Shown: piece after piece, positions 4,870 to 14,697 of the stretch
How the letters are laid out: the number at the start of each line of letters is the position of its first letter
How positions within the stretch are numbered: the first letter of the stretch is position 1
Assembly: GCA_020356005.1 (NCBI GenBank)
Contig: CP070629.1
Coordinates: 1,981,490-2,030,188, forward strand
DNA: 48,699 nucleotides
DNA from: Thermoplasmata archaeon
Lineage (GTDB): Archaea > Thermoplasmatota > Penumbrarchaeia > JAEHCK01 > GCA-020356005
Direction of reading: 5' to 3'
The notes under the pieces: model-generated
The model's database searches: none
Seen by the model: only the letters and a program-made list of their open reading frames with translations
Told to the model about the DNA's origin: nothing
Made by a program: the position numbers and the translations under genes

Positions 4870-5160
4870 CATTATCGCTTAAAGAATGGTGAGGACGGCT
4901 GCTTCGCAGCCTTGAGCATTGAGCTATGAGCACGACCGCTTCGCGATCTTGTGCAAAAAAAGCTGAGAAAGCGATATATTCAGGCACTAGAGAATAGAGA
5001 TGAGGCGCTAGGGTGATTACAATCGATTAAAATCCCCAGGCCCGAGACCCGATGCCCCAGCCCCGAATATGTTTATTGCTCAAGCGAGCGAAGCTCGCGT
5101 GCTCAACGCTCAAGCGAATGAACGAAGTGAGTGAGCGTGCTCAATGCTTTCAAAGCATTA
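4870..5160. repeat. intergenic palindromic element (GAGCA/TGCTC words, family A module at its 5' end)
   Basis: Left arm is aatggtgaggacggctgcttcgcagccttgagcattgagctatgagcacg. Right arm is cgtgctcaacgctcaagcg..cgtgctcaatgctt. Apex is gggtgattacaatcgatt (5011-5028). Confidence 0.7.
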
Positions 5161-5167
5161 ACCAATT

Positions 5168-5662
5168 TTATAGATTATACTTTAATCCAACGCTTACAAC
5201 TAAAATAATCAATCCTGCAATCAGTACGCCAGCAAAGATAGCATAAAATGAGCGCCTGATGTCAAGATCGAACAGGTATGCAATGAGCGAGCCCGTCCAT
5301 GCACCGGTTACGGGCAGCGGGATGCCCACGAAAATCATTAGCCCTATAACTTCGTACTTACGAATGCTTTTACCCGCGCGGCGGCGCGTGCGTGCGAATA
5401 CCTTGTCCATTACCCTCGACCAGTACGGGTAGCGCCGCAGCCAGTTCTCCACGCGCTTGAAGAACACCAAAATGAACGGCACAGGTATCATGTTCGCCAC
5501 CACGCACAATGTAAACGCAAAGGCTATGTTCATATCGTAAACGAAGATTGCAATGGGCAGTGCACCCCTGAGCTCAACGAAGGGCAGCATTGATATGAAT
5601 GCGATAACGAACCAGTCTGGAAATGCTGCTAGAAATTCGGTAATCCTGTCGGCAACGGACAA
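5168..5662 (-). CDS. small multidrug-export-like membrane protein (COG2426 / Sm_multidrug_ex type)
   Basis: 164 aa, 4-5 TM, with the characteristic N-terminal motif LPFVELRGALPIAI. Confidence 0.65.
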   Translation of the reverse strand: MSVADRITEFLAAFPDWFVIAFISMLPFVELRGALPIAIFVYDMNIAFAFTLCVVANMIPVPFILVFFKRVENWLRRYPYWSRVMDKVFARTRRRAGKSIRKYEVIGLMIFVGIPLPVTGAWTGSLIAYLFDLDIRRSFYAIFAGVLIAGLIILVVSVGLKYNL

Positions 5663-5771
5663 AACTCACACCTGGAATTGATTTATATTGATATTTGTTG
5701 ATATCATATAGATTAAATATAATTTTCGAATGCTATCTTGACGATTAACAACAAAACTTTTTTGATTTTTG

Positions 5772-6402
5772 TTGCTTAGTAATACTACCAATACTACAAA
5801 ATCCAAATACTACAAAATTTACCTTTTAATGAATAGTTTCGGTGATCTCCTATTGTTAATTTTAATAAATATAGAATCATTATCATTTCAGGTTTGGGTG
5901 ATATAATGAAAACTGAACCAAAAAAGAAAAAGATTTACAATATTAGAGATAGAGTATTTCAATTCAGTCAAAGGATCTTGGAAATATCGGAATTACTACC
6001 TAATTCTAAAGCATGCGATGTTCTTAGAACTCAATTATTGAAATCAGGTACAGCGATAGGATCTAATTTAGAAGAAATCGATGGGACAATAACGAAACGA
6101 GATTTTTTAAACAAAGTTGTCATTGCCAGAAAGGAAGCAAAAGAGACACTCTACTGGCTACGATTAATCAAAGGAAAATATTTTGACGAAGAAATCATCA
6201 AGGATGATTTGGATGAACTTAATGAGATAACTCTTATACTGAGCGCAATAATAAACAAAACTAGAAAGAAAAATCCATCTTTGTAGTATTTGTCATTTGG
6301 ATTTCCACCGAAGGGGCTGGGGTGGGGCTTTGTAGTATTTGTAGTATTTGGCTTTCCTTTGTAGTATTTGTAGTATTTGAAGTATTTGATTTTACTAAGC
6401 AA
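5772..6402. mobile_element. inverted-repeat-bounded cassette carrying a four-helix-bundle ORF (IVS/MITE-like, no transposase)
   Basis: Terminal 11-mers ttgcttagtaa (5772-5782) and ttactaagcaa (6392-6402) are exact reverse complements. Inside them are arms of tactacaaa / tttgtagta word repeats. The ORF stop codon TAG lies inside the first tttgtagtatttg word. Confidence 0.45.
5906..6286 (+). CDS. four-helix-bundle protein (23S rRNA intervening-sequence protein / Avd-like family)
   Basis: Matches the family signature as I recall it: F.F...I......LP......L..QLLKSGTAIGSNLEE.......DF..K..IARKEAKETLYWLRL. Start placed at ATG 5906; the ORF track starts at TTG 5894. Confidence 0.85.
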   Translation: MKTEPKKKKIYNIRDRVFQFSQRILEISELLPNSKACDVLRTQLLKSGTAIGSNLEEIDGTITKRDFLNKVVIARKEAKETLYWLRLIKGKYFDEEIIKDDLDELNEITLILSAIINKTRKKNPSL

Positions 6403-6430
6403 TTTCAAATCCAAATAAATCGGCTTTTAA

Positions 6431-7759
6431 TCAATAATTTATCGCTTCAGTTTTCATATATTCTCTTAACAGCGATGTGGCGTATGTGCCTTTATTCAGC
6501 TGGAATTTGAACCTTGCAGAATCCTCTGTGATCTCCAGCTCGAAATTCGAAACAGGTGCCGCAAGTTCGCGCCGGATGCCCGAAGACGACGCGGGCAGCA
6601 GCTCGGGGATGACGAAATCGTCCGGCACCAATTTTTCTCGGTTAATGAACTCGTGCTCGATTTCGCCCTGCACCCCCGAGGCGAACTCCGTTTCCGAGCC
6701 GAAAACCAACCCACTTATAAACGCGCGCTGCGCGCCCACCAGCTTGGTGAGCTTCTTGCGGTTGTCAACCGTAACCTCGTACCATTCGGTATGGATGGGC
6801 AGCCCGTCCTTATCCACGGGCAGCACAAGATCCCCGGGCTGGGGCTCCGTCAACGATATGCCCCGCTCGATGCGCGCACAGAGGATGAGGTTGAATATAT
6901 ACGATTGGTATGAGTGCACGAACATCGCCAGCAGGTTCTGCGGAAACCTTCGCAGTGCCCCGATGTAGTCCTCGGGGTTGTCGATGAGGTATCTTATCAT
7001 CGCCCGTTCGAACTCCAGCTCCTTGGGGTATTCCTGCAGCGCACTCTCCAGGTCCCTCGTTTTTACCAGGTTGGTGCGTACCTCGAAGCCTATCGTATCC
7101 CCGGGGAGCGGCCTGCCGATATACTCCCATACCGCCTCCTCGAACTTGCGCTGCACAATATATTTCCCCACATTATGCGTTATGGGCCGTACGGCACCGA
7201 ACCGCTGCACACCGAAAAAATTGGGGAAGCCGTTGAGCTCCTCCAGCTGGGCTTGCGTTTCCTTAATGGCCTCCTCAAGTGCCTTGCCCTCGAGGTCGGG
7301 ATTGGATAAAAGTATATCGAACTTGTTGCCGTAAAGCCGGCCCAGCTTCAGGCGGTGGTTCGAGGTATAAACATCACTTATGGTAACATCGGGGATTCTT
7401 AAGTCCTTGAGATCTTCAGGCGAGGCCTCGAAGGACATCAGCTGGGTCGTTATTCCCCTCTTATCCTTTGTACCTGCAAAATGTACCTTGTGGCTCCTGA
7501 TATTAAGATCCCGGGCCAGCCTTTTCACCAGCCTGTTGGTCTCCCAGTTAAAGGCTTTCACTTTGGCCACGGAGAACCTCCCCGTTTTGGGCGGCTTTAC
7601 AGGGGCGGGGTACATGGAGACCTCCTCCACCACAAAATCCTCTGTTCGTTTGCGGAGCTTGCCACCTACTCCTGTGGATGTTGTATAAAATAATTCCAAA
7701 CCCATGGAACATTCGGCACTACCTGGTCTAAGCCTGTTTTGACCCGGAGCCGAGCTCAT
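6431..7759 (-). CDS. truD: tRNA pseudouridine synthase D (archaeal TruD/Pus7 type)
   Basis: N-terminal GVGGKLRKRTEDFVVEE and catalytic motif FAGTKDKRGITTQ. 442 aa. The true start may be the internal MGLELFYT (about 7705). Confidence 0.9.
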   Translation of the reverse strand: MSSAPGQNRLRPGSAECSMGLELFYTTSTGVGGKLRKRTEDFVVEEVSMYPAPVKPPKTGRFSVAKVKAFNWETNRLVKRLARDLNIRSHKVHFAGTKDKRGITTQLMSFEASPEDLKDLRIPDVTISDVYTSNHRLKLGRLYGNKFDILLSNPDLEGKALEEAIKETQAQLEELNGFPNFFGVQRFGAVRPITHNVGKYIVQRKFEEAVWEYIGRPLPGDTIGFEVRTNLVKTRDLESALQEYPKELEFERAMIRYLIDNPEDYIGALRRFPQNLLAMFVHSYQSYIFNLILCARIERGISLTEPQPGDLVLPVDKDGLPIHTEWYEVTVDNRKKLTKLVGAQRAFISGLVFGSETEFASGVQGEIEHEFINREKLVPDDFVIPELLPASSSGIRRELAAPVSNFELEITEDSARFKFQLNKGTYATSLLREYMKTEAINY

Positions 7760-13466: not shown

Positions 13467-13546
13467 AACACGCCTACAATCAGTTACAATCAGATAATAT
13501 TATCGATACATTTCTTGAGGCAAGAGGATGAAGTATAATCCTGCTT

Positions 13547-13755
13547 CTAAATACTGCCAAAACCAAATATTACAAAATCCAAAGTAAGTCCAAACTCCCA
13601 AATTCAAAAGCAAATCCCAATGTCAAAATTCAAAGTAAATCCTAAATCCAAAGAGGATTTTCCGCCGCTTTTGATCTTTGGATTTCCTTTGGTAGTTATT
13701 TGATGTTTGAGCTTACTTTGTAGTATTTGTAGTATTTGTAATATTTGGATTTAAG
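13547..13755. repeat. family E palindromic element (TACTACAAA / TTTGTAGTA words), ORF-less
   Basis: ccaaatattacaaaatccaaagtaag (13563-13588) pairs with cttactttgtagtatttgtagtatttgtaatatttgg (13712-13748). Apex pair is aaatccaaag...ctttggattt. Confidence 0.7.
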
Positions 13756-13828
13756 AAACATTAAATATCTTTATTTTAGCAATTAATAAACAAAGTGAAT
13801 ATATATCCCATCCTCTATAATCAAAAAT

Positions 13829-14440
13829 ATGCTGCGTATCGGGATACTGGCCGTGCAGGGTGCGGTTGCAGAACATAAAGCCGCCGTGGAACGCACACTG
13901 CAGATGAAAAAGCTTGAAGGTGAGGTCGTGCTCGTAAGGGACAGGGGTGCACTGGAAAGCTCGGATGCTCTGATTATACCCGGCGGTGAAAGCACAACGA
14001 TCTCAAAACTTATTGTAAAATTCCAGCTCGCTGATCTGATTAAACATCGGGTCAAAGCAGAGAACTTTCCAGTTATGGGCACCTGCGCGGGCTCCATACT
14101 CCTGGCATCCAAAGGCGATGAGGAAGTCAAAAAAACCGGTACAATCCTGTTGGAGTTAATGGACTTTTCTGTCGTACGTAATGCCTTCGGCAGCCAGCGC
14201 GAATCCTTCGAAATGCCTTTGACCATCAAAGGTATAGCACCCGAATCTCAGCCTTTTCCCGGCGTGTTCATACGAGCACCTCTAATTATGGAAACCAGAG
14301 GATCTTGTGAATCGCTTGGCAGCCTCCCTGATGGAACTGGAATTATAGCCGCCAGGCAAAATAAATTATTGGCGCTGGTGTTCCATCCTGAACTCACCGG
14401 TGACCTCAGAATACACGAATACTTCATTGAGACCATTTGA
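13829..14440 (+). CDS. pdxT: pyridoxal 5'-phosphate synthase glutaminase subunit
   Basis: IGILAVQGAVAEH, IIPGGESTT, catalytic GTCAG, and C-terminal VFHPELTGDLRIHEYF. Confidence 0.9.
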   Translation: MLRIGILAVQGAVAEHKAAVERTLQMKKLEGEVVLVRDRGALESSDALIIPGGESTTISKLIVKFQLADLIKHRVKAENFPVMGTCAGSILLASKGDEEVKKTGTILLELMDFSVVRNAFGSQRESFEMPLTIKGIAPESQPFPGVFIRAPLIMETRGSCESLGSLPDGTGIIAARQNKLLALVFHPELTGDLRIHEYFIETI

Positions 14441-14469
14441 TTTTCAACAATTCAAATTAATAAGGGTAA

Positions 14470-14690
14470 AATTCTAAATTCTAAGTACTAAATACTAAAC
14501 AAATTCTAAGCACTAAGCACTAAACAAATCCGAAGCACAAATGACGAAAGCCCAAACAAATTAGAATATCGAATATCCCAGGCAAAAAATAAAACCGAAG
14601 GGGGCGGGGCCTTGGTAGTATTTGGATTTTGTAGTATTCCTTGGTAGTATTGGTAGTATTTGAGACTTGGTAGTATTAAGAATCAAAATA
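14470..14690. repeat. family E-like palindromic element, ORF-less
   Basis: The left arm has ctaagtactaaatactaaac / ctaagcactaagcactaaac heptamers. The right arm has ggtagtatttggattttgtagtatt..ggtagtattggtagtatttg. The core ccgaagggggcggggcc resembles 6309-6327. Confidence 0.6.
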
Positions 14691-14697
14691 AAAGCTA

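Follow-up and report, generated by a model that had tools for sequence, protein, structure and literature searches.

An AT-rich island (29-34% G+C) at positions 5663-6430 of the window, by which we mean the whole 48,699-nt stretch of contig CP070629.1 analysed here, lies between two minus-strand genes of 50-57% G+C in a Thermoplasmata archaeon represented by a 3.58-Mb metagenome-assembled genome (MAG) of 357 contigs and 78% completeness. Within the island, an element of ~657 nt (5760-6416) consists of inverted arms of 9-nt GTAGTAT words around a leader and a gene for a protein of the PF05635 family, and its parts follow one another as left arm, 89-nt leader, 381-nt open-reading frame (ORF), right arm, and right terminus (Table 1). 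This cassette lies outside rRNA, between a PF06695 gene and truD, with no other gene in between. The original prediction, made from the window alone, had placed exact 11-nt terminal inverted repeats and word-built arms around an ORF of the four-helix-bundle family whose stop codon is supplied by the first repeat word, and each of these features was confirmed. The 11-mers TTGCTTAGTAA and TTACTAAGCAA are exact inverted copies, the TAG stop (6284-6286) falls inside a word, and the word TTTGTAGTATTTG, with at most one mismatch, was found 14 times in the window (expectation 0.07), and there only at 5788-6388, 13564-13747, and 14612-14662. The 11-mer alone is not significant within the window, at least two matches having been seen in 20 of 100 shuffles, and the inverted repeat extends imperfectly beyond it, outward to ~5760 and ~6416. 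A single-strand fold of 5755-6420 pairs both arms (z -4.3), and the arms alone, with a short linker between them, fold at z -5.7. Scans of the window with Rfam and for tRNAs produced no match, and none was produced by PADLOC.

The arms belong to a repeat, here termed family E, that is dispersed through the genome. GTAGTAT words form 81 clusters of at least three genome-wide, and the arms, including the terminal 11-mer, recur at ~80-100 ORF-less loci of the MAG, while the leader and ORF do not recur and are single copy. The right arm matches 52 other loci, 21 of them over at least 50 nt; the left-arm terminus TTTGATTT..GCTTAGTAATACTAC is present at the left ends of many further copies, and the right ends of many copies read CCACCGAAGGTGGTGGGGTGGGGC, then words, then TTACTAAGC..AAATCAAA. 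In the source metagenome, read depth over the arms, including the right arm of the ORF-less hairpin at 13543-13757, is ~90 times that of unique flanks. Complete family E copies with the termini of the cassette comprise 18 of 157-470 nt, the 627-nt cassette, and one copy of 1067 nt, and the cassette is the sole gene-bearing copy of its own subfamily. The left-type end precedes the right-type end in 22 ORF-less copies versus 1 with the reverse order, which, for an inverted repeat, fixes the configuration of the words and not the orientation of a gene. The proposal that the cassette is the ORF-carrying form of a family of word palindromes is borne out by these results, since its termini and arms are common to dozens of ORF-less copies and the terminal 11-mer, looked for at other family E elements, recurs there.

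Two ORF-less relatives sharing the words and the G-rich core of the cassette had also been proposed nearby, at 13547-13755 and 14470-14690, and each proposal held in part. The stretch 13540-13760 is indeed a long imperfect hairpin of cassette-type words, but it is without the G-rich core. The second relative has the core and a right arm of GGTAGTAT words, but its left arm is made of other, CTAAGCACT-type words and the fold of 14465-14695 is no better than that of shuffled sequences (z -0.8), indicating that this stretch is a chimera or two half-elements and not a palindrome.

Every assessable PF05635 gene of this genome is associated with a dispersed family of words, and the family mostly differs from copy to copy. 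The MAG contains six PF05635 genes, and when their flanks were checked for inverted repeats, all five that could be assessed lay between inverted short-word arrays; the sixth abuts a contig gap. Five of the six cassettes have arms with matches at 20-53 further ORF-less loci apiece. Three of the proteins (those of the window gene and of the paralogues at genome positions 3491045 and 813003) belong to the same clade, here called the window clade, and their candidate words are TTTGTAGTA, TTGGTAGTA, and CTAAGCACT. When 971 small ORFs (80-200 aa), taken from a crude greedy ORF call, were ranked by a flank inverted-repeat score, PF05635 genes held ranks 1, 2, 3, and 5, and the fifth fell at about the 98th percentile. 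This enrichment of bracketing for PF05635 genes is extreme, and bracketing by chance was rejected with four of the top five small ORFs belonging to the family.

The same association extends to other genomes. PF05635 genes were present in 5 of 41 genomes, namely all four genomes of the order (3-22 copies) and one of 37 others of the class or phylum, and in the sister genomes most copies have inverted words of their own. Proteins of the window clade were found in Planctomycetes, Omnitrophota, Margulisiibacteriota, Bacteroidota, candidate-phyla bacteria, ANME-1, Methanosarcinales, and Thermoplasmata. Relatives 55-83% identical to the window protein (Planctomycetes, Omnitrophota, ANME-1, Thermoplasmata) keep the word of the cassette in unrelated contexts; those at 67-83% also share its words, and one of them its termini. 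In two independent records (L036, 2333-2773; L037, 2986-3426), the space between ccmA and ccmB is taken up by a 67%-identical cassette with GGTAGTATTGG arms, which begins 15 nt past one gene and stops 6 nt ahead of the next. Gene callers render the left arm of this ccmA/ccmB cassette as an N-terminal extension of the protein (..KYYQIPSKSQ..). Across many phyla, 61 of 75 assessable loci reached an arm score of at least 14, the 99th percentile of this genome. The 16-mer AAATACTACCAAATCC is kept at 55-69% protein identity, and arm 10-mers are common to 63% of pairs at 50-60% protein identity, compared to 17% for control flanks, which is the chance level. That non-coding arms outlast such protein divergence indicates a sequence-specific constraint beyond the need to pair. 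The composition of the arms also follows the protein, as the 5′ arm is A-rich in 58 of 62 window-clade loci and G-rich in all 16 loci of the order's other clade.

The number of words in a genome was compared with the presence of the gene by counting the pattern TKGTAGTATTKG against a reversed-pattern control. This genome gave 331 matches (control 3), a Thermoplasmata sister MAG 117 (control 9), an ANME-1 MAG 34 (control 2), an Omnitrophota MAG 32 (control 3), and five other gene-bearing genomes 6-14 (control 0-3). No clear excess was seen in two genomes of the same order, and the counts in 37 further class or phylum members, of which 36 have no PF05635 gene, were at the control level. Short R..F hairpins too small to hold a gene were seen in the ANME-1 MAG. 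The words of two sister-genome cassettes are dispersed in their own genome on ~25 contigs (32 versus 2 and 34 versus 3 matches) and absent from the order's other three genomes. These comparisons show that the gene and its arm words are passed on together, by descent and by transfer, among archaeal and bacterial hosts, and that gene-less copies with the same termini multiply only in genomes that hold a gene of the window clade.

Table 1 Features of the gene-bearing element, its neighbours, and related sequences (window positions unless a contig is named; paralogues are designated by genome position)
Feature	Position	Strand	Details
PF06695 small multidrug-export protein gene	5168-5662	minus	Left neighbour of the island
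Left arm	5760-5820	+	Outer imperfect inverted repeat 5760-5771; exact 11-mer TTGCTTAGTAA 5772-5782; three AATACTAC(C/A)AA words 5781-5816
Putative promoter-like leader module	5836-5874	+	GTTTCGGTGATCTCC, then TATA-like TTTTAATAAATATA
Shine-Dalgarno-like GGTGAT (putative)	5896-5901	+	4 nt upstream of ATG
126-aa four-helix-bundle gene (PF05635 23S_rRNA_IVP; TIGR02436)	5906-6286	+	Hidden Markov model matches
Right arm, start	6280-6416	+	Stop-codon word 6280-6292 (TTTGTAGTATTTG word), then G-rich core CCACCGAAGGGGCTGGGGTGGGGC 6305-6328
Right arm, remainder	within 6280-6416	+	Five further TTTG(T/A)AGTA words 6329-6388; exact 11-mer TTACTAAGCAA 6392-6402; outer imperfect repeat 6403-6416
truD	6431-7759	minus	Right neighbour; the next gene is that of archaeal RNA polymerase subunit L
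ORF-less family E hairpin	13543-13757		Termini GCTTCTAAATACTGCC ... GGATTTAAGAAAC; fold of 13540-13760 at z -5.5
Other-family word array CTAAGCACT/CTAAATACT	14468-14540	+	Same family flanks the PF05635 paralogue at 813003; not complementary to the adjacent family E arm
Family E half-element	14595-14684	+	G-rich core CCGAAGGGGGCGGGGCC 14595-14611; GGTAGTAT words; terminus GTAGTATTAAGAATC 14670-14684
PF05635 paralogue 3491045			Word GGTAGTATTGG; sister subfamily with its own GCTTCTTAATACTAC terminus
PF05635 paralogue 813003			Word CTAAGCACT
PF05635 paralogue 34960			Words AACGTT/GCGGTTGCG; ends AGAAGKGCG...CGCACTTCT
PF05635 paralogue 1679112			Word GATTAGGG
23S rRNA fragments	G000:C1:3557375-3557988, 268341-268828, 287168-287321

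On this evidence, we regard it as moderately probable that the element at 5760-6416 is the gene-bearing member of a dispersed foldback family, similar to miniature inverted-repeat transposable elements (MITEs) and built on the plan of the ORF-carrying intervening sequences (IVS) of 23S rRNA, and that its protein recognises its own words. Two inverted arms, each combining a terminal inverted repeat of ~24 nt with 9-nt GTAGTAT arrays, enclose a loop with the gene and, upstream of it, its putative promoter. The protein, presumably an oligomeric four-helix bundle, would act in cis and in trans by recognising its own family's word arrays, and the persistence and spread of the cassette and of its gene-less derivatives may rest on this recognition, in the way that REPINs rely on their RAYT or MITEs on a transposase.

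Several observations weigh against this reading. The ORF-less copies have only the arms in common with the cassette and no loop sequence, so they are not simple internal deletions of it. Family E loops longer than 300 nt hold a PF05635 gene, one 175-aa ORF, or no ORF, and the 1067-nt element (G000:C1:1441386-1442452), with termini GCTTAGTAAATT...GTATTAATAAGC, encloses this 175-aa ORF, which is AT-rich and unrelated. Arms of one family also bracket a few ordinary genes, among them PdxT in the window, isochorismatase, and CoaBC; the repeats are so dense that such genes can look cassette-like by chance, and with the 175-aa ORF bracketed as well, bracketing alone is no proof of a unit. The downstream repeats of the paralogue B1552 are barely dispersed, matching 3 other loci, and the word excess in genomes chosen for carrying the gene, especially where counts are low, is partly circular because each cassette itself adds a few words. 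Some of these points would be expected if the hairpins were host or independent repeats and the gene a separate insert that prefers their apical loops, much as some insertion sequences prefer the loops of repetitive extragenic palindromic (REP) sequences and IVS sit in rRNA helices, with arms and protein functionally unlinked. Under such an arrangement the loops of ORF-less copies and cassette need have nothing in common, an unrelated ORF or a housekeeping gene could stand between the same arms, and arms of different families could adjoin, as they do at 14465-14695. We nevertheless consider it unlikely. One and the same word accompanies the protein clade across phyla and genomic contexts, small genomes with only 6-14 words and no evident pre-existing dispersed family among them; 37 related genomes that lack the gene clade have the words at the level of the control; and arm words at 50-60% protein identity are conserved far past what neutral drift would permit.

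The PdxT-like glutamine amidotransferase gene in the window (13829-14440) lies between the repeats at 13543-13757 and 14468-14684 and has a flank score of 16.5. The 175-aa ORF of the 1067-nt element encodes a hydrophobic N-terminus and lies on the opposite strand; the element carries cargo of a second type or else consists of two half-elements on either side of a gene.

The points that remain to be set against a mobile family concern movement. No target-site duplication was seen by eye at the 18 complete copies, whose outer inverted-repeat limits are fuzzy, and no transposase lies within any element examined, although the incompleteness of the MAG leaves room for a missed one. No clean empty site for the cassette or the two ORF-less elements was found in the contigs of six sediment metagenome runs, where the search gave short-sided joints only, attributable to other copies. 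The orthologous spacer in the sister genomes likewise provided no filled and empty pair, TruD there being just 45-51% identical and the downstream neighbours differing. The missing target duplications and transposases are what one would expect of an immobile system in which the protein is a resident DNA- or RNA-binding regulator, for instance of terminator, insulator, or nucleoid type, with the word arrays as its sites, autoregulatory at its own gene and with regulatory roles elsewhere, and the arrays generated by slippage and gene conversion. The fixed geometry of the arrays and the conservation of words over deep protein divergence, which implies sequence-specific recognition, fit such a regulator as well, as does the distribution of family E copies over tandem, divergent, and convergent spacers, which resembles the background (27:10:7 versus 953:305:273). 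A terminator-like placement of the copies was rejected, since the spacer types follow the background mix. We judge a resident regulator to be improbable, more so than an insert in pre-existing hairpins, because the family, specific to certain genomes, has a patchy distribution (5 of 41 class or phylum genomes, including all four of the order, and scattered occurrences in many bacterial phyla at 55-69% identity); because cassettes are wedged between the cistrons of unrelated operons; because conserved terminal inverted repeats lie outside the word arrays; and because the repeat is amplified ~100-fold in one genome and nearly absent from two of the same order.

The protein encoded by the cassette matches PF05635 at 57 bits (cut-off 33.8) and TIGR02436 at 72.3 bits (cut-off 24), in agreement with the predicted family, and a profile of its clade matches PDB 2RLD, an entry deposited with five chains, at an E value of 5.6e-30. 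An AlphaFold2 (AF2) monomer model, with a predicted local distance difference test (pLDDT) score of 90, has four helices at residues 13-29, 35-60, 64-88, and 95-122. Xcc0516, a relative, is a pentameric toroid (PMC4990558). Compared with the family motif GxxRxxxSxxxNxxE (PMC3936711), N54 and E57 are invariant across the clade, the S position is Ala50 here and Ser in most clade members, and the R and G positions are Lys46 and Gln43. Only one other Pfam family, PF05762 VWA_CoxE, was hit, and below threshold (22.4 bits; cut-off 26.4), and the Pfam matches of the window protein include no recognisable nuclease, recombinase, catalytic, or HUH/Y1 domain. A look-up of the exact protein for other contexts returned no record.

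Upstream of the gene, the leader contains a module, TTCAC-N3-6-CCYCC-N2-8-A/T-rich box, that precedes the start codon by 35-90 nt in archaeal cassettes from either protein clade and with any arm word (it was seen in the upstream 130 nt of loci L001, L003-L008, L011, L027, L029, L035, L038, and L039). Bacterial relatives are without the leader, and their arms abut the start codon. Judging by its position and pattern, the module may be an internal archaeal promoter or a common regulatory site of archaeal cassettes. A promoter at this place would set the start of transcription near 5890, and with the module inside the loop the gene's own mRNA would lack the left arm.

This arrangement bears on whether the element behaves as a classical IVS at the RNA level, its arms pairing in the transcript so that a host double-strand RNase cuts the stem and the insert is released or destroyed, leaving the host transcript little disturbed and the protein dispensable. 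The homology to IVS proteins, the identical layout of stem-loop and tandem repeats, the predicted pairing of the arms, and the leaderless bacterial relatives located between cistrons are consistent with this, as is the cutting of the Coxiella stem by RNase III, with an ORF that seems unexpressed (PMC4990558). In this incomplete MAG, no match to RNase III (PF14622) was found, nor was there one in one of three sister genomes; in a survey of the order, matches were present in two genomes (G002, G003) and in neither of the other two, for which genuine patchiness, incomplete genomes, or contamination could be responsible. In 90 arm pairs, G.U mismatches are not in excess of A.C (200 versus 169, p = 0.12), so that no wobble bias is seen, and transition-type and transversion-type mismatches stand near the random ratio of 1:2. 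The ORF is unbroken and conserved, 18 columns being invariant among 20 clade members, and the promoter-like module would leave the left arm out of the gene's mRNA. With no RNase III gene found, no wobble bias in the arms, and a promoter-like module in the loop, the RNA-processing model taken from bacterial IVS is weak here, and we think a purely RNA-level IVS very unlikely. None of the RNA sequencing runs searched contains the stretch. Of the 23S rRNA itself, the assembly contains only pieces that break off at contig gaps, covering model positions 16-662 and 2542-2973, together with a weak second 3′ piece; the helix-45 region is missing from them.

Family E has further features of its own. A mini-hairpin, CCACCGAAGGTGG, occurs 27 times genome-wide against ~0 expected, usually at the inner edge of family E arms beside TGGGGTGGGGC. 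The palindrome GGGGA(GA)AGAATC(T)CCCC stands on both sides of some copies (G000:C1:2216290-2216530 and 3312250-3312520) and adds ~16 nt to the inverted repeat; elements with such flanks may sit inside a repeat of another class or be fused to one. Two GTAGTAT arrays of the same orientation enclose a tRNA-like sequence at G000:C1 ~1564730-1564820. Of the 81 clusters, 29 lie in spacers broken by contig gaps, indicating that the repeats fragment the assembly, which is a practical consequence for work on such genomes. Elsewhere in the window, at 4881-5123, the spacer between a FIMAH-domain gene and the PF06695 gene has a metagenome contig depth of 35-60 compared to ~6 in unique sequence, which makes a further multicopy repeat in this spacer probable.

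For PF05635/TIGR02436, a very large orphan family, the only textbook context beyond Avd is the 30-year-old puzzle of ORF-containing rRNA IVS. The locus joins two unexplained things, this orphan protein family and dispersed word arrays, and suggests a gene-carrying master copy with gene-less derivatives, that is, an overlooked and widespread selfish element or a partnership of host and element, in archaea as well as bacteria. Extended tentatively beyond this locus, a generalisation that we hold with less confidence than the reading of the element itself, PF05635 proteins may be the trans-acting partners of unexplained short-word arrays in many prokaryotes. The gene with its inverted arrays would then be the autonomous form and gene-less arrays the dependent form of a cross-domain mobile class without known transposase chemistry, and the IVS of 23S rRNA would be copies that landed in rRNA.

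Among known systems, the fold is that of Avd, an oligomeric, basic accessory protein that binds nucleic acid. Avd also belongs to the same Pfam family (PMC10053308 cites PF05635). Identity with Avd of a diversity-generating retroelement was rejected, as no reverse transcriptase or template/variable repeat lies nearby and the neighbours are a PF06695 protein and TruD. PF05635 genes have also been described inside cas operons, with arms unmentioned (PMC3936711).

The layout is IVS-like, as the original prediction had suggested. ORF-bearing 23S IVS are known from Leptospira and from helix 45 of Coxiella burnetii (Ralph & McClelland 1993; Warrier et al. 2016, PMC4990558), the latter with a 28-bp stem and GACAGAT heptamers (PMC4990558), and the authors of the 2016 study, like Ralph and McClelland earlier, suspected a mobile element whose ORF serves mobility; the suspicion of a selfish or mobile origin is long-standing. 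The element described here shares with them a PF05635 (S23p) protein, a gene located in a loop closed by paired terminal inverted repeats, and short tandem repeats beside the ORF. It differs in lying between protein-coding genes of an archaeon, outside rRNA, in having long arrays of 9-nt words as arms instead of a 28-bp stem, in its own promoter-like leader, and in that no RNase III gene was found in this genome, which contains ~100 gene-less copies with the same termini.

MITEs and foldback elements exist as dozens of short non-coding, intergenic copies with terminal inverted repeats and subterminal tandem repeats, alongside a longer gene-bearing relative. The dispersed copies described here resemble them in their conserved terminal inverted repeats (81 clusters; arms matching 43-52 other loci), but no target-site duplication was found and the sole gene-bearing relative is without a known transposase. 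In REPIN-RAYT systems, or REPtrons, a gene has inverted copies of a short palindromic repeat on either side, further copies of this repeat are scattered over intergenic regions without the gene, and the repeat is specific to the gene lineage. Here, too, inverted copies of a repeat that is dispersed elsewhere enclose the gene, with one repeat per gene lineage. The protein, however, is a four-helix bundle without the HUH/Y1 (IS200-like) motif; in place of 20-40-nt REP hairpins, there are tandem arrays of words bounded by terminal repeats; and the unit has clearly been passed horizontally between phyla.

Dispersed arrays of 7-nt words have been described in Xanthomonas and Nostoc (GGGNATC; Rehm et al. 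2015, PMC4692102), and multicopy intergenic sequences in Geobacter metallireducens (PMC2700814). These, too, are tandem arrays of short words over non-coding regions, with unexplained function, and the abstracts of the two reports name no associated gene family. Here, one copy of each word family bears a gene, and word and gene occur together from genome to genome. No description of a gene-plus-arms cassette outside rRNA, or of gene-less derivatives, was found in the literature. To the systems above, this locus adds the archaeal host, the combination of 9-nt words with outer terminal repeats, a dispersed ORF-less family for each cassette, and the association of word and gene clade across genomes.

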